DNA from: Patescibacteria group bacterium
Lineage (GTDB): Bacteria; Patescibacteriota; Minisyncoccia; Phycocordibacterales; EsbW-18
DNA length: 64,000 bases
NCBI GenBank assembly: GCA_038064475.1
Contig: JBBTTA010000001.1
Span: forward strand, 111,086 to 175,085
Reading direction: 5' to 3'
The position numbers and the translations under genes are program-made. How positions within the stretch are numbered: position 1 is the first letter of the stretch; every line of letters begins with the position of its first letter. The notes beneath the pieces were generated by a model, which saw only the letters and a list, made by a program, of their open reading frames with translations, made no database searches and was not told the origin of the DNA. Shown here one piece after another: positions 4,023 to 47,815 of the stretch.

Positions 4023-5216
4023 ATGCAAAAAGTACACCATTTTGGTTTCAGTTTCCTCTGTATTCTAGGGCTTGTTCTAGCGCCCTTCTTTGCGCATGCA
4101 GATATTCCAGATTTAGAGGTAACAGGTTGGATTCCCTACTGGACCGTCACTTCAGGAACGCGAGATGCGGCTCAACACCTTGAAACACTCACCGAAATCC
4201 ATCCGTTTGCCTACGTTATTAAGTCAGACGGCACGCTAAGTGACCTCGCAGATTTGGATAAACGCATATGGAAGCGTCTTTTCACAAAAGCGCGTCATGA
4301 GGATGTGTTGATTATTCCGACCGTCACCACAAGCAACGGCCCTTTGGTGCATAGCATTTTGACTAATGCACGACGTATGAAAGATCACGTCGAAGAAATT
4401 GTTGATATGGTTGAAGATGGCCGCTACGATGGTGTTGATATTAACTATGAAGGGAAATTAGCTGACACAAATCTTTTCTTTGCACTGTTCTTGCGTGAAC
4501 TCAAAAAAGAATTGGGATCAAAAATGCTTTCCTGCGCAATTGAATCACGCACGCCGCCTGAATCTCTCTACCGAGTTGTTCCTGATACAATCGAGTACGC
4601 AAACAACCTCCCCGCTATCGGTTTGTACTGTGACCGCGTGCAAATCATGACGTATGATCAACAACGCGCTGATCTTTTGTTAAACGATATGCGTAAGGGC
4701 GCGCCATACATTCCTGTATCTGACCCTGCATGGGTACGTAAGGTAGTTGACTACATGGCGCTCTCAATTCCTCGCGACAAAATGATGTTGGGTATTCCTA
4801 CCTACGGACATGAATTTGAAGTCATTACGATTCCTGATCAATTTTTGGAATACAATAAGGTCGGTTCACGAAATCCGGACACCGCACTCGATAAAGCAGA
4901 CGATAAAGATGTGGAGCCATCACGAAACAGCGCGGGTGAATTAAGTTTTTCGTACCTTCCTGACTTCATTGAGGACGATTTGCCACGAAATCTTCGTATT
5001 CCTGCAAACACCCCCGAAGGGAATAAAGCCGCCGCACAAGCACTCGCCTACGCCGGTATGACAGGACAAGCCGTTCCGGTCTATGTGGTGTGGTGGAGCG
5101 ATGCAGAAGCAATCGAAGATAAAGTTGAGCTCGCCGATGAGTTGGGGTTACGCGGTGTTGCAATATTTAAGATTGATGGGCATGAGGACGAAGATATGTG
5201 GAATATTTTTGAATAA
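4023..5216 (+). CDS. secreted glycoside hydrolase family 18-like (chitinase-like) protein
   Basis: The N-terminus looks like a signal peptide. The DGVDINYEG stretch matches the GH18 DxxDxDxE catalytic motif. Confidence 0.7.
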   Translation: MQKVHHFGFSFLCILGLVLAPFFAHADIPDLEVTGWIPYWTVTSGTRDAAQHLETLTEIHPFAYVIKSDGTLSDLADLDKRIWKRLFTKARHEDVLIIPTVTTSNGPLVHSILTNARRMKDHVEEIVDMVEDGRYDGVDINYEGKLADTNLFFALFLRELKKELGSKMLSCAIESRTPPESLYRVVPDTIEYANNLPAIGLYCDRVQIMTYDQQRADLLLNDMRKGAPYIPVSDPAWVRKVVDYMALSIPRDKMMLGIPTYGHEFEVITIPDQFLEYNKVGSRNPDTALDKADDKDVEPSRNSAGELSFSYLPDFIEDDLPRNLRIPANTPEGNKAAAQALAYAGMTGQAVPVYVVWWSDAEAIEDKVELADELGLRGVAIFKIDGHEDEDMWNIFE

Positions 5217-5923: not shown

Positions 5924-6790
5924 TCAGAGCGAATACTGTTTGAAGAGCGCTAACATACCACGAAGGTTTTTATCCCATTCAATCGTTTCGTGCGTTGAAA
6001 GCTCTACCGTAATTGCAGGAATATTAATTGAAGCAAGCCACCCTTCGGCGTCCCCTGTCACTTCATAACTATCAAATACATCGACTGTTTGATACCCAGC
6101 GGCAGTTGCGTATGAGGTCATGAGTGTGCGCGTCTCGGGTAAAATACCCATTTCACACTCTGATGCATACACGGCATTTGCTTGGCTGTGCCAGAACACA
6201 AAAGCATCGGGGCTTTGTGCGGTCACAAAATCACGAATCGCTCGAGTTTCAGGTTCAGAGAATGCAGACGTGCCCGCAGACACGACGTTCCCGCGCCATG
6301 TACTTTCTGGTTTCCATTTACAATCAAAGTTGCGGTTGAGGTCAACGTTGTTTGCATTGAAACGTCCAAGAGAATCATCTCCCCCAAGCGAAACGTCAGC
6401 GAGTGTGAAGCGTCCTTCCTTCCCTATGATTTTAAATACGCCGTCAGGATTTGCTGAAGGGATAATCGTTACCATGAGTGCGTCAGGAATTACTTCAGGA
6501 TGAAGTGTTAAGTAATCCATCGCTTCATACGCAAGCAAAACGCTATTCCATTCATATCCGCCGTGAATGCCTCCAACAAATACGAGATGGTTTTCACCGT
6601 CACCAAATGTTATCGCCTCAATAGGACGACCAAGGACCGAAGTACCAATCGTCGCACGCGTAACAACAGGTGTTTCCTCTACAGGCGGAACAACTTCAGG
6701 AACTTTGTCGCGCAGGAAAAAAACAAGGAGACCAATGAGCACTCCAAGAAGGAGAATGCCTCCGACAATCTTTTTACCGATGGGTCGCAT
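5924..6790 (-). CDS. zinc carboxypeptidase, M14 family, membrane-anchored (paralog 1)
   Basis: 288 aa with an N-terminal TM helix, GGIHGGYEWN and DLNRNFDC (M14 zinc-binding and NRN motifs). Its ATG shares one nucleotide with the stop codon of the upstream paralog. Confidence 0.7.
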   Translation of the reverse strand: MRPIGKKIVGGILLLGVLIGLLVFFLRDKVPEVVPPVEETPVVTRATIGTSVLGRPIEAITFGDGENHLVFVGGIHGGYEWNSVLLAYEAMDYLTLHPEVIPDALMVTIIPSANPDGVFKIIGKEGRFTLADVSLGGDDSLGRFNANNVDLNRNFDCKWKPESTWRGNVVSAGTSAFSEPETRAIRDFVTAQSPDAFVFWHSQANAVYASECEMGILPETRTLMTSYATAAGYQTVDVFDSYEVTGDAEGWLASINIPAITVELSTHETIEWDKNLRGMLALFKQYSL

Positions 6791-7677
6791 TATTCTTGGC
6801 TGGCAACGTATTCAATAACTGCGTCAGCACCCTTCCAGTTCTTTTCCCACTCTGTTGTGTCGTGTGTTGTAAGGAGAACGCTGATTGCTGGAATGCTTTC
6901 TTTCGCAAGCCAGTTCACCATGTCACCTGTAATGTCGTAAAAATCAAACTCTTCGTATGCGGGATACCCTGATGCCTTTGCGTAGAGGTTCGTCAATTCA
7001 AGTGTCTCTTCAGATACACCACCGTGACAGTTTGAAGCAAAGACTCCACCCGCTGAGCTGTAGAACACAACCACTGCGTCTGGGTCATTTTTCTCAATGT
7101 AGGCCTTCATTGCTTGGCTTTCTCGTTCAGAGAAGGCTCCTGTACCGCCGCTTACTGGAGTTTGCTGCCATACACCTGTTGCTTGCCAATCACAATCAAA
7201 GTTGCGATTGAGGTCAACATCGTTTGCGTTGAAGCGTCCAGGAATTGTTTCGCTCTTTGCAGTTGGCACGTCTTCTTTAGTGAATCGTCCTGATGTACCC
7301 ACAACTTCTTCCAAACCATCTGGGTTCAATACAGGAATAACTGATACCGTCACACCATCTGCAATCTCATCTGGATTTGCTTCCAAGAAATCAATAAGTT
7401 CGTATGAAAGCAATACTGTGTTCCATTCATAACCACCGTGAATACCTCCGACAAACAAAACCTCTTTATCTCCTTCACCAAAGTGATAGATAGGAATCTC
7501 ACGACCCTTAATTGATATACCAATAGATGTTTCTTCGAGAGCAACAGGAGTCGTTGTTGCATTCGTTGTTGTTGCTGTCTCTGGTGTCTCTGTAGTCTCC
7601 GGCTTACGTGTTGTAATCACCCAAATACCGAGCCCAATTAGAATAATGACAATAAGTGCTATAATGAATTTTTTCAT
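6790..7677 (-). CDS. zinc carboxypeptidase, M14 family, membrane-anchored (paralog 2)
   Basis: 295 aa with the same GGIHGGYEWN and DLNRNFDC motifs. It is clearly paralogous to the downstream gene. Confidence 0.7.
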   Translation of the reverse strand: MKKFIIALIVIILIGLGIWVITTRKPETTETPETATTTNATTTPVALEETSIGISIKGREIPIYHFGEGDKEVLFVGGIHGGYEWNTVLLSYELIDFLEANPDEIADGVTVSVIPVLNPDGLEEVVGTSGRFTKEDVPTAKSETIPGRFNANDVDLNRNFDCDWQATGVWQQTPVSGGTGAFSERESQAMKAYIEKNDPDAVVVFYSSAGGVFASNCHGGVSEETLELTNLYAKASGYPAYEEFDFYDITGDMVNWLAKESIPAISVLLTTHDTTEWEKNWKGADAVIEYVASQE

Positions 7678-7720
7678 GGAACTATTTTAGCATACTGGCT
7701 GTATTGTCAATTGGATACAC

Positions 7721-7747
7721 AAAAGGCCGCTTCCGCGGCCTTTTTTC
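7721..7747. terminator. rho-independent terminator, usable in both directions
   Basis: The hairpin ggccgc-ttcc-gcggcc is followed by tttttt and preceded by aaaa. Confidence 0.5.
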
Positions 7748-8265
7748 TAGTTGAATTTTATCGTTTGTGCGATATCGTCGATAAGTGAATCGAGGTTAAG
7801 ATCTTTTCGTTCCGCCTCACAAAGCTCTTGTTCCTTTTCATTCAAGTCATTGCACTGCAGAGATCGTGTACTGAATGCAAGTGCCACAGTTCGGTCATCC
7901 TTCACAAATACATACGCGTACTGTGTGTAAATATTTCCATCTCCACTATTTTTTATTTCAGTCACACAATACGTGTGTCCATCAATAGTGCGTTCTTCCG
8001 TTTCGCCTGCGCGCGCAATTTCAGTTCCCGCAGTGGTACAGAGATATGGCGCGTCAGAAATAATAATTTTTGGTGGCCAATCGTACGTAAACGTGTATTC
8101 AGCTCCAATTCGTCGTGGAAAGTTGAAATGAAATCCTTCTCCTTGTGTTGAATCCCATGAACCCAATACACCGATTTCATCGGCAAGACGTGACTTTATG
8201 ACTGCCGTTAGAACGGCTGCAAGGACGACAATGACAAGCGCCCCGATAATGATTTTCTCTTTCAT
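7747..8265 (-). CDS. hypothetical membrane-anchored protein
   Basis: 172 aa with an N-terminal TM helix. I recognised no family. Confidence 0.45.
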   Translation of the reverse strand: MKEKIIIGALVIVVLAAVLTAVIKSRLADEIGVLGSWDSTQGEGFHFNFPRRIGAEYTFTYDWPPKIIISDAPYLCTTAGTEIARAGETEERTIDGHTYCVTEIKNSGDGNIYTQYAYVFVKDDRTVALAFSTRSLQCNDLNEKEQELCEAERKDLNLDSLIDDIAQTIKFN

Positions 8266-8383
8266 ATATGTACCCTAGCACAAATAGCCGGTTAGGCATC
8301 ATTTACTCAAAAAATGGTACGAGAGGAAAAGAGACGTGGACGGCCCAGAAAAGGTGCCTGACCCCATTTACCTAGTTTACAAA

Positions 8384-8953
8384 TTAAAAGTTTCTTATAA
8401 TCGATTCACAAATATCTGCTGCTGTTTTTGCCCAATGTTCACTTATTTCTCCATTTCCCTCCGATAGTTCCTTGTGTAAATGCACATAGTTCCTTAAATC
8501 TCTGATGATGTGAATTTTATGATTTTCCATGTCGGAAAGATAGCCATTTTTGTGTGCAATCTCAAGAGCATCATTAAAGTTTTTTGCTTTTGGATATTTT
8601 TCAATTAATATAGCTTCAATAATCGAACCATATAAAATGATGGATGGTTTCCATAAGGAATTTTTTAGGCAAATTTTTGCAGATTTATAGTCTCTCTGAA
8701 GCAAGGGCTGTAGTCTTTTGCTGTTAATAAAGTCGAAGGTTCGCTCTGCAACTTTTTTTCTCATTGTTGGATCTTTTTCAAATAGATCCTTCGCACGATT
8801 ACTCATCATTTGTCGATATTCATCAGACACTAGCTTTGCTCTTGGAAATCGTTTTTGGTATTCAAGTGAAGACAGTTTGTGTTTTCTGTTTATATGAGTT
8901 GCGAGGCCTGAAGAAAATGTTTCTCCACAAATTTTACATTTTACTCTTTCCAT
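8384..8953 (-). CDS. C2H2-like zinc-finger protein with a C-terminal HEPN/DUF4145-like motif; possible defence or abortive-infection nuclease
   Basis: The N-terminus reads CKICGETFSSGLATHINRKH, a C-x2-C-x10-H-x4-H pattern. The C-terminus reads IIRDLRNYVHLH, an R..(R)N..H arrangement resembling the HEPN Rx4-6H motif. The gene is conspicuously AT-rich compared with its neighbours. Confidence 0.55.
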   Translation of the reverse strand: MERVKCKICGETFSSGLATHINRKHKLSSLEYQKRFPRAKLVSDEYRQMMSNRAKDLFEKDPTMRKKVAERTFDFINSKRLQPLLQRDYKSAKICLKNSLWKPSIILYGSIIEAILIEKYPKAKNFNDALEIAHKNGYLSDMENHKIHIIRDLRNYVHLHKELSEGNGEISEHWAKTAADICESIIRNF

Positions 8954-9121
8954 AGTTTTATATTGTTGCGGGACACTGGATTTTTGAATCCTCTCTTTGT
9001 ATTGACCGGTAAAGTGAGCATATCACAGGTATATGACTCGCGCAGTGCGACGGCACGAGCGGGAGTGCCGTTCTAGCAAGAACGGACACGTGTCATATGC
9101 CGGTGAGTATGCGAACGAATG

Positions 9122-9192
9122 TTGCGGGACTTGGATTCGAACCAAGATACCCTCCTCCAAAGGGAGGTGTCCTACCATTAGACGATCCCGCA
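9122..9192 (-). tRNA. tRNA-Gln (anticodon TTG)
   Basis: On the minus strand a cloverleaf can be drawn: acceptor TGCGGGA/TCCCGCA, anticodon stem CCTCC/GGAGG with loop CTTTGGA, and T-arm CTTGG-TTCGAAT-CCAAG. Confidence 0.85.
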
Positions 9193-9217
9193 GTAGCCAC
9201 ACTATACCTTTTGAAAC

Positions 9218-9442
9218 CTATTTTATAAAGGTGTCATCTATCTCAACAATTTTGTTGCGAGATGTGGTGCCCGCAACAATACACACCGCGCTTTGTGGAA
9301 CATTAAAATGTTTTGCGAGCACGCGGATAAGTTCCATATTTGCCTTCCCTTTTTCTGGCGTGGCGCGAATACCAACTTCAAGCCCCTCTGGAGTTTCTTT
9401 CACAAAATCTCCACGCAACACAACTTTAACGTTGTACTTCAT
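9218..9442 (-). CDS. DUF167 / YggU-family small protein
   Basis: 74 aa with EGKANMELIRVLAKHF...VAGTTSRNKIVEI, matching the YggU/UPF0235 pattern. Confidence 0.65.
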   Translation of the reverse strand: MKYNVKVVLRGDFVKETPEGLEVGIRATPEKGKANMELIRVLAKHFNVPQSAVCIVAGTTSRNKIVEIDDTFIK

Positions 9443-11070: not shown

Positions 11071-11442
11071 TTACTGGTACAGACTTCCTGAAACGCCCCA
11101 GTCCTCTTCTTCCTCAAAAACAACATCTGAGAGTCTCAATGGTTCTGTGAGTAGATGCGGGGATATGCCGTCGGGTTTCAGCTGTGATCTGATGATCTCC
11201 TGTTGCACAAGTATTCCATCAGCCACGCTGAGCATTTGTATTGCCCACAGCACTTCCAAAATGAACTGGGCTTCAAACTTCGTAAAAAGGCGTGGTGTCG
11301 CTTTCAGTCGAAAGCTGGTCCCTTTGTCCTCTGTCACCTCTTTGTACAACAGAATAATTCCGTTTGCACCGTCGGAACGAGGCAAAAACAGCGAAGACCG
11401 CCCAGGAATGATTGGCATAGCGCCCCCTCTTTTTTGGTTCAT
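11071..11442 (-). CDS. hypothetical protein, paralogous to 10625..10966
   Basis: 123 aa with LFLPRSDGANGIILLYKE and PRLFTKFEAQFILEVL, which align with the downstream paralog. Confidence 0.45.
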   Translation of the reverse strand: MNQKRGGAMPIIPGRSSLFLPRSDGANGIILLYKEVTEDKGTSFRLKATPRLFTKFEAQFILEVLWAIQMLSVADGILVQQEIIRSQLKPDGISPHLLTEPLRLSDVVFEEEEDWGVSGSLYQ

Positions 11443-11526
11443 CTGTTTTTGTTATACGCTTCTCACAAAAAATATCAAGTACACATGACACTAAAAATAA
11501 TACCCTTCTCACATCTAACGTTCCAA

Positions 11527-11547
11527 CGTTCTATAGAACGATAGAAT
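11527..11547. promoter_or_regulatory. palindromic motif cgTTCTATAGAAcgatagaat, copy 1, a putative operator upstream of the ArsR-like gene
   Basis: It is a perfect 14-bp palindrome (cgttctatagaacg). A second 21-nt copy with one mismatch lies at 11886..11906. Confidence 0.4.
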
Positions 11548-11618
11548 ATTATTCTTTATTCTTTAAGAAAATTTGATGGGTGATTGTGTAGTCTATAGGC
11601 ATAAACCTACATACATCT

Positions 11619-11903
11619 GTGAATATTGATAAAAAGAAATTTCGATACCTCGAGAGAGTAACTCGTGGATCTTCACATAACCGCAGGATTCAAATTTTGT
11701 ATCTTCTTAACACAAAAGGAAATTTATCTGTTGAAACAATTTCCAACACCCTTCATACAAATTACAAGAATGCTGCACAACACACGCAACGCATGTTTAT
11801 TGCCGGTCTCATAGAAAAAACGCAAAGCGGCAGATCAGTACTTCACACACTTACACCACTTGGGAAATCCCTGCTTTCTTTCTATCGTTCTATAGAAAGA
11901 TAG
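11619..11903 (+). CDS. ArsR/SmtB-like winged-helix transcriptional regulator
   Basis: 94 aa with an HTH signature, RRIQILYLLNTKGNLSVETISNTLHTNYKNAAQHTQRMFIAGLIEK. The apparent start codon is GTG, so the true start is uncertain. Confidence 0.55.
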   Translation: MNIDKKKFRYLERVTRGSSHNRRIQILYLLNTKGNLSVETISNTLHTNYKNAAQHTQRMFIAGLIEKTQSGRSVLHTLTPLGKSLLSFYRSIER

Positions 11904-44239: not shown

Positions 44240-44554
44240 ATGCACGAAGGAACACGAGAAGAAACATTTGCGCATCTTGCTGCAGAGTTTATCAATCGAG
44301 AATCAAACCGCGAATCACTTATTACCGTCACGCGCGTGATGTCGTCAACGGACAGCAAACGTGCTGATGTCTACATCACTGTACTCCCTGACACACGCGT
44401 TCCTGAGGCCCTCGACTTTTTGAAACGTAAACGAAGTGAGTTCCGTGAATTCGTAAAAACACATACGCGCGGACGTTCAGTTCCAACATTTGATTTTGTG
44501 TTTGATGTTGGTGAAAAAAACCGACAAGAAATCGAAGCATTGTCACAACATTGA
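44240..44554 (+). CDS. rbfA: ribosome-binding factor A
   Basis: 104 aa beginning MHEGTREETFAHLAAEFINRESNRESLITVTRV, which resembles RbfA. It sits directly downstream of infB. Confidence 0.7.
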   Translation: MHEGTREETFAHLAAEFINRESNRESLITVTRVMSSTDSKRADVYITVLPDTRVPEALDFLKRKRSEFREFVKTHTRGRSVPTFDFVFDVGEKNRQEIEALSQH

Positions 44555-44625
44555 GGCACGGGCGGGAATCGAACCCGCGCATGACGGTTTTGCAGACCGT
44601 AGTGTTACCACTTCACCACCGTGCC
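44554..44625 (-). tRNA. tRNA-Cys (anticodon GCA)
   Basis: On the minus strand: acceptor GGCACGG/CCGTGCC, anticodon loop CTGCAAA and T-arm GCGGG-TTCGATT-CCCGC. Confidence 0.85.
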
Positions 44626-44670
44626 ATGATTGTGTACAGAGTATCTCTATTTTGGTATTTTGGGAAGCAA

Positions 44671-44753
44671 GCTGGGGTGGCGAAATGGTATACGCGACAG
44701 ACTTAAGATCTGTTGTCCGCAAGGACGTGAGGGTTCGATCCCCTCTCCCAGCA
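44671..44753 (+). tRNA. tRNA-Leu (anticodon TAA), class II
   Basis: Acceptor GCTGGGG/TCCCAGC (with one G-U pair), anticodon loop CTTAAGA, long variable arm and T-arm GAGGG-TTCGATC-CCCTC. Confidence 0.9.
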
Positions 44754-44766
44754 CTAAAATTGTTGA

Positions 44767-44799
44767 GACGAACACATGTGTTCGTCGATTACTATTTTT
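44767..44799 (+). terminator. terminator after tRNA-Leu(TAA)
   Basis: The palindrome gacgaacacatgtgttcgtc is followed by gattactattttt. Confidence 0.6.
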
Positions 44800-44919
44800 G
44801 CTGGGAGAGGGGATCGAAGGCGAGTGCGGGCGCCTTGTCAGCAGACAAGGTCGCATGAGCAGGACTGAGAGGAATGAGGAGCGACGGCGACGAATGAGCT
44901 CTTGGTCTGAGCCCCTCTC
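44800..44919. repeat. tRNA-Leu 3'-flank structured element, copy 2 of 3
   Basis: It starts with gctgggagaggggatcgaa, the exact reverse complement of this tRNA's 3' half. The core is about 90% identical to copy 1. It ends with cccctctc, which pairs with gagagggg in the first segment. Confidence 0.5.
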
Positions 44920-44968
44920 TTAAAATATAAATTGCGAATAGAGCGTTATTTTAGTAGGATACAAACAC

Positions 44969-45040
44969 CCATCCGTAGCTCAATGGTAGAGCAGCTCCCT
45001 CTTAAGGAGTTGGTTGTAGGTTCGACTCCTACCGGGTGGA
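44969..45040 (+). tRNA. tRNA-Lys (anticodon CTT)
   Basis: Acceptor CCATCCG/CGGGTGG, D-arm GCTC-AATGGTA-GAGC, anticodon loop CTCTTAA and T-arm GTAGG-TTCGACT-CCTAC. Confidence 0.85.
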
Positions 45041-45130
45041 CTTTCAAAGAAAGTCCTGCATATTAGAGTGTGCGGAGCACATTCTACTCCGGCAAGCTTT
45101 GCCTGATTCGCGTTCTGACGCGACAAAGCT

Positions 45131-45224
45131 TACCGGGTGGACAAGTGAGCCGGTATCGATGAGCTTGCTTATCGGAAACGGCGAGCGCGGACACTCGGTA
45201 TCCTATACCGGGTGGACAAGTGAG
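45131..45224 (+). repeat. two 19-nt direct repeats (taccgggtggacaagtgag) that copy the 3' end of tRNA-Lys; they resemble att-site remnants
   Basis: The 12-nt core taccgggtggac is present at the tRNA 3' end (45030..45041) and again at 45131..45149 and 45206..45224. Confidence 0.5.
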
Positions 45225-45246
45225 TTTTAGTCGCCTGCTCACGTTC

Positions 45247-45328
45247 GGGCGAGTGGCGAAATTGGTAGACGCGCCAGCCTTAGGAGCTGGTGGAGCAATC
45301 CTTGGAGGTTCGAGTCCTCTCTCGCCCA
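45247..45328 (+). tRNA. tRNA-Leu (anticodon TAG), class II
   Basis: Acceptor GGGCGAG/CTCGCCC, anticodon loop CTTAGGA, long variable arm and T-arm GGAGG-TTCGAGT-CCTCT. Confidence 0.9.
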
Positions 45329-45335
45329 CACATAC

Positions 45336-45656: not shown

Positions 45657-46757
45657 ATGCTCATCTGGTTCGCAATCGTAGTGCTTTTCGTAATCCTCGT
45701 CATCCTTGCCGGAAAACTCGGCTGGTTCATGACCGAGGTTCCCGAGGGCTCTATGAAGTTCGTAAAAGCTGGTGAGGATTACGTCCGTACAATCCTCAAC
45801 ATCAAGAACAAGACGATGGTCAGGAAGTTTGATCCAGCAACTGGAGTCGAAGAAGAAGTCATCGAAACTGGATTCAATCCACTGTCTTTGTCTCCTCTTC
45901 GTGTATTCGGTTTTCACTGGATCAGTTGGATGTGGCCTCTTCGGCGTCTGCATCGGTTTTCTTTGACTACGAACATTCTCATTACGGAAACCGAACAGGG
46001 TCAAAAGAAACTCCACGAGTGGGTGCAGACCAAGCCACACGACAACACCGACCGACTTGGTCTCATGATCCGATCATACTTCTTTTTGAAGGGGGTCGAG
46101 CTCAAGGGGCAGTTCAAGGTAGACGTCGTTGTGTTCGCTCTCATGGAGATCGTCAACCCGCGTCTTGCAGTCTTCGTGTACAATGCTGACTTCGTCAAGA
46201 TCTTGGGACCAGCAATCCTTTCTGGATATGCTGACAATGCCAAGACCAAAGACATCGTCCAGTTCACGAACCTGAAGAAAGGACGTGGGAGTAAGTTCGC
46301 ACAAGATGTTTGTGAGTATGTAAATACAGGCCGCAGAAGTAAGGTCGCAACCGAGAAAATCGAAAACGTATACGGCGTTCGACTTGTCGAGACGTTTGTA
46401 TACGAGTTCGACCAAGCAGATGCTGATCCCGAGGCTCTCAAGGCCGCACAGGCTCAGAAAGTTGCCGAGCTCCAAGCAAAGGCAACTATCACAAGAGCAA
46501 CGGGTCAAGCTGAAGCTCGAGTGATCGAAGCCAATGCAAAAGCCACCGAGCTCTCGTCGAACGTCAAAGCACTCGTCGAGGTTGGGGTTGATCCCAACGA
46601 AGCGATGCGTAGTTACGCGACCATCCGTTCGACAGAGAATGTTCCAAACCTTCAGACGTGGGTGCAAGGTGGCGGTGTGGTTCCGACAGTTTCTGTTGGC
46701 AATCCCACTTCCCCTTCCCCTTCGTCCAAGAACAAACCCAAGGAGACTCCCTCATGA
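45657..46757 (+). CDS. SPFH / band-7 (stomatin/HflK-like) domain membrane protein
   Basis: It has an N-terminal TM helix, a band-7 core and a coiled-coil, AQAQKVAELQAKATITRATGQAEARVIEANAKA. AAGGAG sits 8 nt upstream of the ATG. The region's GC is visibly elevated. Confidence 0.75.
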   Translation: MLIWFAIVVLFVILVILAGKLGWFMTEVPEGSMKFVKAGEDYVRTILNIKNKTMVRKFDPATGVEEEVIETGFNPLSLSPLRVFGFHWISWMWPLRRLHRFSLTTNILITETEQGQKKLHEWVQTKPHDNTDRLGLMIRSYFFLKGVELKGQFKVDVVVFALMEIVNPRLAVFVYNADFVKILGPAILSGYADNAKTKDIVQFTNLKKGRGSKFAQDVCEYVNTGRRSKVATEKIENVYGVRLVETFVYEFDQADADPEALKAAQAQKVAELQAKATITRATGQAEARVIEANAKATELSSNVKALVEVGVDPNEAMRSYATIRSTENVPNLQTWVQGGGVVPTVSVGNPTSPSPSSKNKPKETPS

Positions 46758-47815
46758 TGAAGCGATTTTTGTTTCGTGCGAAGCGTTTCGCACGCAAGTG
46801 CGATATCAGGCTTCGTCGGAGGTTTCGTTCATTCGCAACCTTCGTCACGGTTCAGCGACGACGTGTTGGTTCTCACCTTCGCGTCGTGGTTTGGCCGAGG
46901 CTCAAGCTTCGACTGAACCAATTCAGTGTCCTTCTCATCACGAGAGGTATCGTACCTATCAAGGCACACTACCTGAAACATCGACTGATGGTTGTGACTG
47001 CCTTTAAGTTCGTGCTGAAAATCACTGCGGTCATCGTAGTGCTTCTCATAGCACGCGCACAGGGGCTCTTCGGAGAGAGCCTTTCTTTGAGGGAGTATCG
47101 GTGGTGGATCCTTGGAGTGCTTGTTGCACTCTGTGTGGTTCTACTTTCCGTGCTCCTATATCGGAAAGGGGTTCGCCTCAAGAAGTTTTCACTTCCGGGT
47201 TCTGTGGGTGAGAGGTTCAGCTTCAAAGGCTTCCTCAAACTTGCTCTGCTTGTGTTCGTGATCTTCTTCTTCAAGGATGTCATCGTAGCTACGGCTGCGG
47301 GCATCTGGAGCATTCGTCCCACCGACGAGAATATCGCTCGTTGGGAGAAGGACAAGCGTGCTGCTGAAGAAGCGACACGCAAAGCTCGCAGAACGGATTG
47401 GCCGTGCACATACGACCTCTCGGAGTACGGCGGGAAGCACGTCGCTAACCACGACGCGAAGTTCCTCAAGCCGGACGATGGAGAGGCGTGGAAGGTCTGT
47501 TTCTATGACCGACGCAAGCCCGAGCCCCTCTCCAACCAGCAGTTGAATAACTTCTGGAAGGACACCTTCCCTACACTCGTCGGAGATTCTGCTGGCTGGG
47601 ATGTAATCGTGATCAAAAACCGTGACTTCAACACGAAGACGTGTATGGTCCGGGACAAGCACAACAACGCATACTACCGACAGCAGTTTCCGAAGGAGTC
47701 TGGCGAGGTTTCGATCGACATGGTCGACGAGTCTCGCCGGCTCGTCATCGGCGGGGACAGCAAGGAAGAGGCCGAGTCGGGTAAAATCCCGCAAGTGTTC
47801 ACAATTTCCTGTTAG
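46754..47815 (+). CDS. hypothetical membrane protein co-transcribed with the SPFH gene
   Basis: Its ATG overlaps the SPFH stop (ATGA). It has two or three TM helices centrally and a soluble C-terminal domain. Confidence 0.5.
   Translation: MMKRFLFRAKRFARKCDIRLRRRFRSFATFVTVQRRRVGSHLRVVVWPRLKLRLNQFSVLLITRGIVPIKAHYLKHRLMVVTAFKFVLKITAVIVVLLIARAQGLFGESLSLREYRWWILGVLVALCVVLLSVLLYRKGVRLKKFSLPGSVGERFSFKGFLKLALLVFVIFFFKDVIVATAAGIWSIRPTDENIARWEKDKRAAEEATRKARRTDWPCTYDLSEYGGKHVANHDAKFLKPDDGEAWKVCFYDRRKPEPLSNQQLNNFWKDTFPTLVGDSAGWDVIVIKNRDFNTKTCMVRDKHNNAYYRQQFPKESGEVSIDMVDESRRLVIGGDSKEEAESGKIPQVFTISC

Follow-up and report, generated by a model that had tools for sequence, protein, structure and literature searches.

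We analyzed a stretch of 64,000 nucleotides from a Patescibacteria group bacterium (contig JBBTTA010000001.1, positions 111,086 to 175,085 of the forward strand; hereinafter the window), focusing on a single gene of the minus strand (8384..8953) and the tRNA-Gln gene next to it. The gene, taken from the list of open reading frames (ORFs), starts with ATG, ends with the stop codon at 8384-8386 and encodes a protein of 189 amino acids (aa) in which a Ros/MucR-type C2H2 zinc-finger domain (residues 3-60; 8774..8947) is joined through a conserved linker (residues 63-86; 8696..8767) to a DUF4145-type HEPN domain (residues 87-189; 8387..8695); we denote this protein and its family ZnF-HEPN. Upstream, on the same strand, lies the gene for tRNA-Gln with the anticodon TTG (9121..9192; detected with ARAGORN and, at 63.7 bits, with Rfam), which serves as the anchor of the locus, and downstream, also on the minus strand, a gene for a 172-aa protein with an N-terminal hydrophobic helix (7747..8265). 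A database protein that is 100% identical to the 189-aa product comes from a Patescibacteria metagenome-assembled genome (MAG) and is annotated as 'DUF4145 domain-containing protein'. As detailed below, the family is restricted to Patescibacteria and is recurrently linked to tRNA-Gln, its horizontal acquisition is well supported, and it is probably a phage-defence or toxin gene.

The 189-aa protein opens with MERVKCKICGETFSSGLATHINRKH, and its N-terminus, CKICGETFSSGLATHINRKH, presents the four zinc ligands in the arrangement C6-x2-C9-x10-H20-x4-H25. All four ligands are invariant in the alignment of 40 family sequences to which the conservation values given here refer; because of its private insertion G16, the window protein has x10, where the rest of the family shares the spacing of Ros87, C-x2-C-x9-H-x4-H. 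Among solved structures, the best match to the family profile is Ros87 (PDB 2jsp; E 1.6e-4), an alignment that covers residues 17-54 and pairs the elements CxxC...H....H..EY, and the Pfam profile ROS_MUCR (PF05443) is matched by 35 of the 40 members at E < 0.01 (best E 4.2e-7). In the window protein itself this profile scores 17.0 bits against a gathering cut-off of 25.4 (E 0.0065), and two other finger profiles are likewise below their cut-offs, zf-C2H2 (PF00096) at 16.4 vs 25.2 and zf-BED (PF02892) at 19.8 vs 20.6. The ROS_MUCR alignment is limited to profile positions 64-119: the window protein begins at the finger, and the N-terminal region of MucR/Ros (profile positions 1-60) is absent from it in the Pfam alignment. 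Helices of the finger domain span residues 18-25, 29-35 and 44-60. With a mean pairwise identity of 43%, this is the most variable domain of the family. The likeness to Ros/MucR proteins (PF05443; Ros87) consists in the same zinc-site spacing in the family, followed by the ..EY.. helix, whereas Ros/MucR is a free-standing regulator and the finger considered here is fused to an RNase-type domain and lacks the MucR N-terminal region.

The linker, which reads DPT.R.KVA.RTFDF..N..L..LLQRDY, has a mean pairwise identity of 61%, with R71 and F75 invariant, and relatives that lack the finger keep it together with the HEPN domain (profile positions 72-194). The latter domain, with a mean pairwise identity of 65%, was delineated from Pfam, Foldseek and an AlphaFold2 model. 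DUF4145 (PF13643) matches residues 91-183 of the window protein over profile positions 2-88 of 88, passing the gathering cut-off by a narrow margin (24.3 vs 23.1 bits; E 3.3e-5); in the family, 32 of 40 proteins match it (best E 4.9e-7). The AlphaFold2 model, built from the alignment (pLDDT 88.2), shows a small beta/alpha finger with helices following to about residue 60, then the linker and a four-helix bundle (helix 1, 81-97; helix 2, 101-119; helix 3, 141-163; helix 4, 172-188) in which an additional helix separates helix 2 from helix 3. The best Foldseek matches in the PDB are all HEPN structures (2hsb, 7ae6, 6m6w, 1ylm, 1o3u, 3o10, 8y7g and 8wf8); the proteins named among these matches are AF_0298 (2hsb), MNT-HEPN toxins, YutE, TM0613, the HEPN domain of sacsin, Csx1 and Cas13b.

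The segment IIRDLRNYVHLH (residues 149-160) carries the R/N/H motif, and the predicted catalytic motif as a whole (residues 151-162; 8468..8503, minus strand) reads R151-D-L-R154-N155-Y-V-H158-L-H160-K-E162 and is located at the end of helix 3 in the model. H158 and E162 are present in all 40 sequences, R154, N155 and H160 in 39 each, and position 151 is occupied by R in 34 sequences and by K in 6. Beyond this alignment, conservation of the motif extends to more than 165 homologs from Patescibacteria. R154-N155-x4-H160 follows the canonical Rx5H pattern, N155 being the polar residue behind the arginine; alternatively, the motif can be read as R151-x6-H158. Helix 2 contains E113 and E118, each conserved in at least 90% of the sequences, and residues 120-140, between helices 2 and 3, are the most variable stretch of the domain. 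By definition, helix 3 of a HEPN superfamily member ends with an Rx4-6H motif whose R is followed by a polar residue, helix 2 contains an acidic residue, and the insert that separates these two helices is poorly conserved (Anantharaman et al., PMC3710099). As modeled, the ZnF-HEPN family conforms to this definition in both fold and motif. An earlier note on this DNA, made by a model from the letters and the ORF list, had described a C2H2-like finger and a HEPN/DUF4145-like motif, RxxRNxxH. The first of these assignments stands in refined form, as Ros/MucR type, and the second is upheld by Pfam, by Foldseek and by the position of the motif; in Pfam, the HEPN half of the window protein passes its cut-off and the finger half does not.

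Altogether 165 homologs were found, nearly all of them 184-207 aa long, with the same two-domain layout and 49-77% identity, which rules out a chance ORF. The homologs with named organisms come from MAGs of Patescibacteria (Paceibacterota, Microgenomates and Veblenbacteria), and the genomic loci that contain the gene add Moraniibacteriota, Roizmanbacteria and WWE3; the family is restricted to Patescibacteria, some homologs from 'binchicken' MAGs carrying other labels that are unconfirmed. A profile search of 1.84 billion representative proteins yielded only about four full-length representatives at 50% identity (seven matches at E <= 1e-30), but 3480 partial relatives. No relative of the protein was found among viral contigs (IMG/VR), no copy of the gene in 50,697 phage genomes searched with tblastn, and only a distant Streptomyces relative of the HEPN module in a plasmid collection. 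Two protein families of unknown function in the PHROG collection match the two halves of the window protein separately.

Both halves of the protein also occur in other combinations. Larger proteins (300-1350 aa; P0132, P0133 and P0147 among them) contain the finger module as a tandem array of 2 to 16 copies, which Pfam calls ROS_MUCR. Some of these proteins appear to end in nucleases, a lead suggested by a sub-threshold Phage_endo_I match in P0133 (E 4.6e-4), an HNH-like C-terminal motif read by eye in P0147, where Pfam found no HNH, a match to PHROG 1271 ('HNH endonuclease') at E 0.039, and structural neighbors in BFVD that are annotated as Endonuclease I, Holliday junction resolvase and Endonuclease. 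Conversely, the linker and HEPN domain are found without the finger in P0134, P0139, P0145 and P0223, and three finger-less forms can be distinguished: the module alone with a NUMOD3-like N-terminus (Pfam E 0.28, sub-threshold), the module behind a domain that resembles a winged helix, and the module ahead of a domain of about 230 aa. The Streptomyces relative, encoded on a Streptomyces chartreusis plasmid (locus L080; NZ_CP108842.1, 555153-555995), is a 280-aa hypothetical protein that is 28.5% identical to the linker and HEPN domain; its gene directly follows that of a 1453-aa AAA-domain protein and is near genes of TIGR02679 and TIGR02680, putatively JetD and JetC of Wadjet. The linker-HEPN module thus recombines with other N- or C-terminal domains, in the manner of defence effectors.

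The base composition of the gene deviates from that of the window. Its GC content is 33.5% against a window mean of 45.7% (standard deviation 3.1), the lowest value of all 570-bp segments in the 64 kb (fraction at or below this value 0.0005, or 0.05%), and the AT-rich patch is confined to the ORF itself. Compared with the 44 genes of the window, GC is reduced at the first (GC1 0.41 vs 0.57 +/- 0.04), second (GC2 0.33 vs 0.39) and third codon positions (GC3 0.27 vs 0.41 +/- 0.06); GC3 is the lowest of the 44, which rules out amino-acid composition as the sole cause of the low GC. Across hosts, the GC content of the gene is 23-37% with flanks at 30-55%; it is below that of the flanks in 38 of 40 loci, and the two are weakly correlated (r 0.38). 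Two other parts of the window also stand out in composition. The second-lowest GC patch (about 32-36%) lies at 11300-11750, among small ORFs upstream of the gene for DnaX, in a region that includes a 94-aa ORF (11619-11903, plus strand). The adjacent genes 45657-46757 and 46754-47815 (plus strand) deviate the other way, their GC3 being 0.57 and 0.65 (window mean 0.41), and are possibly another foreign segment.

The ZnF-HEPN proteins are also more similar to each other than are other proteins of their hosts: between the window and locus L001 they are 65% identical vs 38% for DnaX, and between loci L006 and L008 they are 70% identical vs 44-52% for GltX, AspS and an S11 peptidase. The closest relative found, locus L076 (DnaX 87% and M14 peptidases 72-79% identical), has the order DnaX, DUF167, a 229-aa ORF, tRNA-Gln(TTG), an 87-aa ORF and the two M14 peptidases M14a and M14b; both the ZnF-HEPN gene and the 172-aa ORF are missing, that is, L076 represents an empty site. 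It was reached by a search via DnaX; a search via the 172-aa neighbor failed, this protein being an ORFan. In blastn, the similarity between the window and L076 ends at the 3' end of the tRNA and restarts at the start codon of M14a, and because it breaks at these borders, the variable segment from the tRNA-Gln 3' end to the M14 peptidase (7678..9120, minus strand) is lineage-specific. In a Campbellbacteria relative, a 90%-identical tRNA-Gln is followed by an acetyltransferase gene, and a contig of the same species from another sample has the arrangement of the window. The candidate explanation of a core housekeeping gene is ruled out by the patchy distribution, the GC content and the empty site. 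The GC content that the earlier note had put visibly low, in the mid-30s percent, proved on measurement to be the lowest in the window, and the horizontal acquisition that it had proposed is borne out by GC, divergence and the empty site.

The 3' end of tRNA-Gln and the ATG of the ZnF-HEPN gene are separated by 167 nt on the same strand. This adjacency, which the earlier note had treated as the classic context of acquired cargo, goes beyond a generic context: tRNA-Gln (TTG or CTG) is found upstream on the same strand in 24 of 50 non-redundant loci, the window included (22 loci counted by script, plus L019, with a mis-called start codon, and L051, in which the tRNA was read by eye and is cut by the contig end just before the ATG), and in most of the loci without an upstream tRNA-Gln, the sequence ahead of the gene is shorter than 1 kb. 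A different tRNA occupies the same position in four loci (tRNA-Ser in two, tRNA-Glu and tRNA-Ala in one each), and about a third of the evaluable loci have no tRNA nearby. Genomes of this kind, about 1 Mb in size, contain one or two tRNA-Gln genes, so that chance alone would place fewer than one of them in the 175 kb analyzed upstream of the gene. On the downstream side, 169 kb of sequence contained no tRNA at all. The linkage to tRNA-Gln is a real and recurrent property of the family.

Three distance classes can be told apart. In the first, of about 30 bp, the gene follows the tRNA immediately (L008, L019, L033, L057 and L065); the second comprises 114-170 bp (L042, the window and L039), and the third 0.7-3.8 kb. 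A partly decayed orphan copy of the 3' end of tRNA-Gln, comprising the T-arm and acceptor strand (GGATTCAAAAATCCAGTGTCCCGCAAC; 8965..8991, minus strand), is present in the window and ends 11 nt before the ATG; its alignment score against the last 26 nt of the resident tRNA-Gln was reached by none of 5000 shuffles. A clear copy is also present in L042 and marginal ones in L039, L041 and L046; orphan copies in every locus were not confirmed, the window and L042 being the clear cases. Counted from the real or the orphan tRNA-Gln 3' end, the gene starts after 25-45 nt in very different hosts. The orphan copies and the distance classes together indicate that the gene is inherited as a unit with the 3' end of tRNA-Gln and a leader of about 30 nt, and that other DNA was inserted at the tRNA, between it and the gene. 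The direct repeats of the tRNA 3' end bracket the 140-bp spacer and not the ZnF-HEPN gene; within 3 kb downstream of the gene there is no second orphan copy above shuffle level and no target duplication.

The spacer itself has a host-like GC content (48.5%) and contains a long imperfect hairpin (9018..9112, minus strand; -48.9 kcal/mol, z -3.65) whose stability was matched by none of 200 shuffles. Rfam matches nothing but tRNAs in the spacer and its neighborhood, and the sole other copy of the spacer is in the contig of the same species (L075). It could be the remnant of an integrated element, an insert similar to a miniature inverted-repeat transposable element, or a structured leader. Promoters and terminators were sought as consensus matches, which were not more numerous than expected from shuffles. 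Within this limit, the sole promoter-like site upstream of the gene (9201..9229, minus strand; 9/12 consensus positions) precedes tRNA-Gln, with none in 8954-9120, and no terminator-like site was found between the tRNA, the gene and the 172-aa ORF, so that co-transcription of the ZnF-HEPN gene from the tRNA-Gln promoter is possible. A strong intrinsic-terminator-like hairpin with a 10-bp GC-rich stem and a T run (7721..7744) would close the tRNA-Gln/ZnF-HEPN/172-aa unit; the scan reports it on the plus strand, and on the minus strand, too, T's come after the palindromic stem.

The segment between tRNA-Gln and the ZnF-HEPN gene is occupied by varied cargo in other loci. It includes NYN and PIN_12 proteins, RAZR (see below), a HepT-MNT pair, GIY-YIG, a Mutator-family transposase and candidate families of PADLOC, along with metabolic genes (SDR, argininosuccinate synthase, NUDIX and hydrolases). 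That single Mutator-family transposase was the only one found among the loci, and no integrase was detected among their called genes and 33 intervening ORFs (judged from the 25 most frequent of 32 Pfam families). The earlier note had called the gene solitary, and indeed no partner gene is conserved across the loci. The 172-aa ORFan has a 99%-identical copy in the same species as its sole homolog, is unrelated to the downstream neighbors elsewhere and is absent from L076; the genes of about 190 aa found downstream in various loci are ruled out as a conserved partner because they are not homologous between loci. An adjacent MNT antitoxin, as in HEPN-MNT pairs, is absent as well, the neighbors being variable and non-homologous, and the MNT-HepT pair is a separate cargo present in one locus only. 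At locus L010, a 234-aa protein (4289-4993, plus strand of that locus) with a CPHC...CVPC zinc ribbon and a RIFGNWGAHP motif is encoded between tRNA-Gln and the local ZnF-HEPN copy, adjoining a PIN_12 protein; it matches the PADLOC model for PD-T7-4 at E 2.2e-11 and the RAZR structure 9y9c_OA. On the other side of the tRNA, the 229-aa ORF of L076 (6291-6980, plus strand of that locus) ends inside or next to tRNA-Gln and has a LAGLIDADG-like motif, LIGIALYWAEGAK, recognized by eye only, and a GIY-YIG ORF has the same position before tRNA-Gln in L001, which suggests that the upstream side of the tRNA gathers mobile nuclease genes, too.

Among the neighboring genes of the window, two tandem, diverged M14-type peptidase genes (5924-6790 and 6790-7677, minus strand; 288 and 295 aa) have abutting start and stop codons and contain 77-nt repeats that are 81% identical (6295-6371 and 7167-7243); the pair is kept in L076. 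Farther away, four tRNA genes are clustered at 44553-45329 (Cys-GCA on the minus strand; Leu-TAA, Lys-CTT and Leu-TAG on the plus strand).

Among characterized systems the nearest is RAZR, the ring-activated zinc-finger RNase formerly known as PD-T7-4 (Zhang et al., Nature 2026, PMC13017515; PDB 9Y9C, 9Y6U). RAZR consists of an N-terminal Cys4 zinc ribbon, a conserved, essential linker (residues 66-79) and a C-terminal DUF4145/HEPN domain in which the catalytic residues R146 and H154 lie within the stretch RIVGNQAVH; the E. coli protein is a single-gene abortive infection system that is activated as a 24-mer around ring-shaped phage proteins and, when active, cuts single-stranded RNA non-specifically and cleaves tRNAs but no DNA, with phage specificity determined by the zinc-finger domain, its most variable part (PMC13017515). 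The ZnF-HEPN family resembles RAZR in being a single gene for about 200 aa with a zinc-binding N-terminus, a conserved linker (63-86 here, analogous to 66-79 in RAZR) and a C-terminal DUF4145 HEPN domain, in the R...N...H stretch of the equivalent helix, where R146 and H154 of RAZR have their parallel, and in the gradient of conservation, with the finger most variable and the HEPN domain most conserved (43%, 61% and 65% for finger, linker and HEPN here). Moreover, a true RAZR homolog resides in the same tRNA-Gln-linked cargo region (L010). The two differ in the zinc-binding domain, a Cys4 ribbon in RAZR and a Ros/MucR-type C2H2 finger here, and in the spacing of the motif, R-x7-H in RAZR as opposed to R154-x5-H160 or R151-x6-H158 here. 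By the tests run, detailed below, the ZnF-HEPN family is not a member of RAZR.

Fusions of zinc ribbons with DUF4145 were listed already in 2013, together with restriction endonucleases, helicases, Sel1, TIR, sigma-HTH and AbiJ-NTD1 as DUF4145 partners (Anantharaman et al., PMC3710099). The ZnF-HEPN family shares with this branch the four-helix HEPN core, the insert between helices 2 and 3 and the variability of N-terminal modules, and differs in that the Ros/MucR finger is not among the listed partners (PMC3710099). The architectural class, a zinc-binding domain joined to a DUF4145 HEPN domain, is already known, and the statement of the earlier note that such a fusion is unusual was an overstatement, in view of that list and of the characterized RAZR (PMC13017515); the family considered here is set apart by a finger of the Ros/MucR type, by being restricted to Patescibacteria, by its fixed position behind tRNA-Gln and by the fact that defence models do not detect it. 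AbiJ-type and other single-protein HEPN systems of abortive infection combine an N-terminal domain, as sensor or intramolecular antitoxin, with HEPN as a suicidal RNase (PMC3710099). Here the likeness is one of architecture and proposed logic, and the HEPN family and the N-terminal domains are different ones. With tRNA-linked islands the locus has in common the direct repeat of the tRNA-Gln 3' end (window and L042), the variable cargo and the empty or alternatively occupied site in relatives; it differs from them in that no integrase was detected among the genes and Pfam families covered and in that the orphan copy is upstream of the gene.

We favor, with a probability of roughly 55%, the interpretation of ZnF-HEPN as a single-protein sensor-plus-effector RNase, RAZR-like or AbiJ-like, that is carried as mobile accessory cargo at a tRNA-Gln hot spot. 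The identities of the domains, the conserved motif, the fold, the signals of horizontal transfer, the linkage to tRNA-Gln and the empty site are observed; RNase activity, sensing of a trigger, a defence role and co-transcription are what we infer under this interpretation. The Ros/MucR-type finger would serve as the recognition or regulatory module, with the linker packing on the effector, and the DUF4145/HEPN domain would provide a metal-independent RNase site formed by R154, N155 and H160, with H158 and R151 nearby and E113 and E118 in helix 2. In the resting state, the RNase would be inactive; binding of a trigger by the finger region, either a phage protein, as in RAZR, or a phage nucleic acid, as the Ros/MucR fold might suggest, would reposition the HEPN dimers, and the activated enzyme would cut cellular and viral RNA, halting translation and resulting in abortive infection or growth arrest. 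The gene lies in the variable cargo region immediately 3' of tRNA-Gln, where the tRNA promoter may transcribe it. The defence and toxin cargo at the tRNA-Gln flank of other loci (PD-T7-4/RAZR, HepT-MNT, PIN_12, NYN and PADLOC candidate families) counts in favor of this interpretation, as do the domain assignments and the fold, the nearly invariant motif, the parallels with RAZR, the modularity of the linker and HEPN domain, the surroundings of the Streptomyces plasmid relative and the signals of horizontal transfer.

Several results weigh against it. None of the 40 family members matches the PD-T7-4 profile (PADLOC PDLC04109) at E up to 10, although the model works in Patescibacteria, as the detection of the 234-aa homolog of L010 (2.2e-11) shows as a positive control; PADLOC yielded only scattered weak matches for these 40 proteins. 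The window protein has no match in PADLOC (5027 defence models) or NCBIfam. The hhalign comparison of the family with the RAZR homolog is marginal (probability 7%, E 0.005), and RAZR (9Y9C) is not among the 50 Foldseek matches listed. The Foldseek E-values for HEPN structures are weak, at least 0.036 (2hsb, E 0.036, probability 1.0), albeit consistent. Furthermore, the Ros/MucR fold is a DNA-binding one and not a known protein sensor, the neighbors of the gene in the window are the ORFan and peptidases, with no defence genes, and, given the metabolic genes, the cargo region is not a pure defence island.

An alternative is that ZnF-HEPN is a selfish, site-specific mobile gene, comparable to a free-standing homing-endonuclease gene or an addiction toxin, in which the finger recognizes DNA located at, or close to, the 3' end of tRNA-Gln and the protein aids its own insertion or retention, no benefit to the host being needed. 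We consider this unlikely, even if much of the genomic evidence would fit: a start 25-45 nt past the tRNA-Gln 3' end with both anticodons, always on the same strand and never with a downstream tRNA; no integrase or transposase consistently nearby; a low-GC patch limited to the gene, a patchy distribution and very high sequence conservation; tandem fingers in proteins that seemingly end in nucleases, and NUMOD3-like N-termini on HEPN-only relatives. HEPN domains, however, are known as RNases or as non-catalytic domains and never as DNases (PMC3710099), and RAZR cuts no DNA; the nuclease assignments of the multi-finger proteins are all sub-threshold or made by eye, and other elements that integrate into tRNA-Gln would explain the orphan copies equally well, with no second attachment site downstream. 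The more specific form, in which a HEPN protein with a finger of homing-endonuclease style targets the tRNA-Gln 3' flank across Patescibacteria or uses the tRNA as its promoter and processing signal, is a long shot; it would explain why a gene without an integrase recurs 25-45 nt after tRNA-Gln.

Another alternative is a DNA-binding transcription regulator or xenogeneic silencer of the Ros/MucR type, with a non-catalytic HEPN-like domain used for dimerization or ligand sensing. The Ros/MucR DNA-binding fold prefers AT-rich DNA, and the gene itself is AT-rich, which makes autoregulation conceivable; many HEPN domains are indeed non-catalytic (PMC3710099, Table 1). The near-invariance of R154, N155, H158, H160 and E162, a catalytic HEPN signature, argues against this possibility, as do the absence of the MucR oligomerization region (profile positions 1-60), the stronger conservation of the HEPN domain than of the DNA-binding part and the occurrence of the linker and HEPN without the finger, and we regard it as slightly less probable than a selfish gene. 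An RNA-processing or quality-control enzyme tied to tRNA-Gln, acting in the processing of a co-transcript or in the cleavage of tRNA-Gln under stress, is very unlikely. The fixed adjacency and orientation, the lone promoter-like site before the tRNA with no terminator in between, and the precedents of PrrC and RloC, which are HEPN tRNA nucleases (PMC3710099), and of RAZR, which cleaves tRNAs (PMC13017515), would agree with such a function. The closest relatives, however, keep tRNA-Gln and lack the gene, about a third of the evaluable loci have no tRNA and a few have tRNA-Glu, tRNA-Ser or tRNA-Ala, up to 3.8 kb of unrelated cargo separates the tRNA from the gene, and the foreign GC content and the divergence pattern oppose a core function.

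Patescibacteria (the candidate phyla radiation) have tiny genomes, and knowledge of their immune and mobile genes is scant. In this group, the sequence 3' of tRNA-Gln is a recurrent cargo hot spot (RAZR, HepT-MNT, PIN and NYN) that could be mined for new defence systems. The family also poses a puzzle, namely how a gene without a recombinase stays about 30 nt behind tRNA-Gln when the housekeeping proteins of its hosts share only about 40-50% identity; if ZnF-HEPN is a selfish gene that targets the tRNA-Gln flank or exploits the tRNA, this would imply a new route by which genes move or have their expression coupled, and perhaps a HEPN target among nucleic acids other than free RNA. The protein is small and confidently modeled and offers obvious point mutants, so that these predictions are cheap to test. 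If the sensor-plus-effector RNase interpretation is true, the principle of RAZR would also hold for another finger fold and in an uncultivated phylum.

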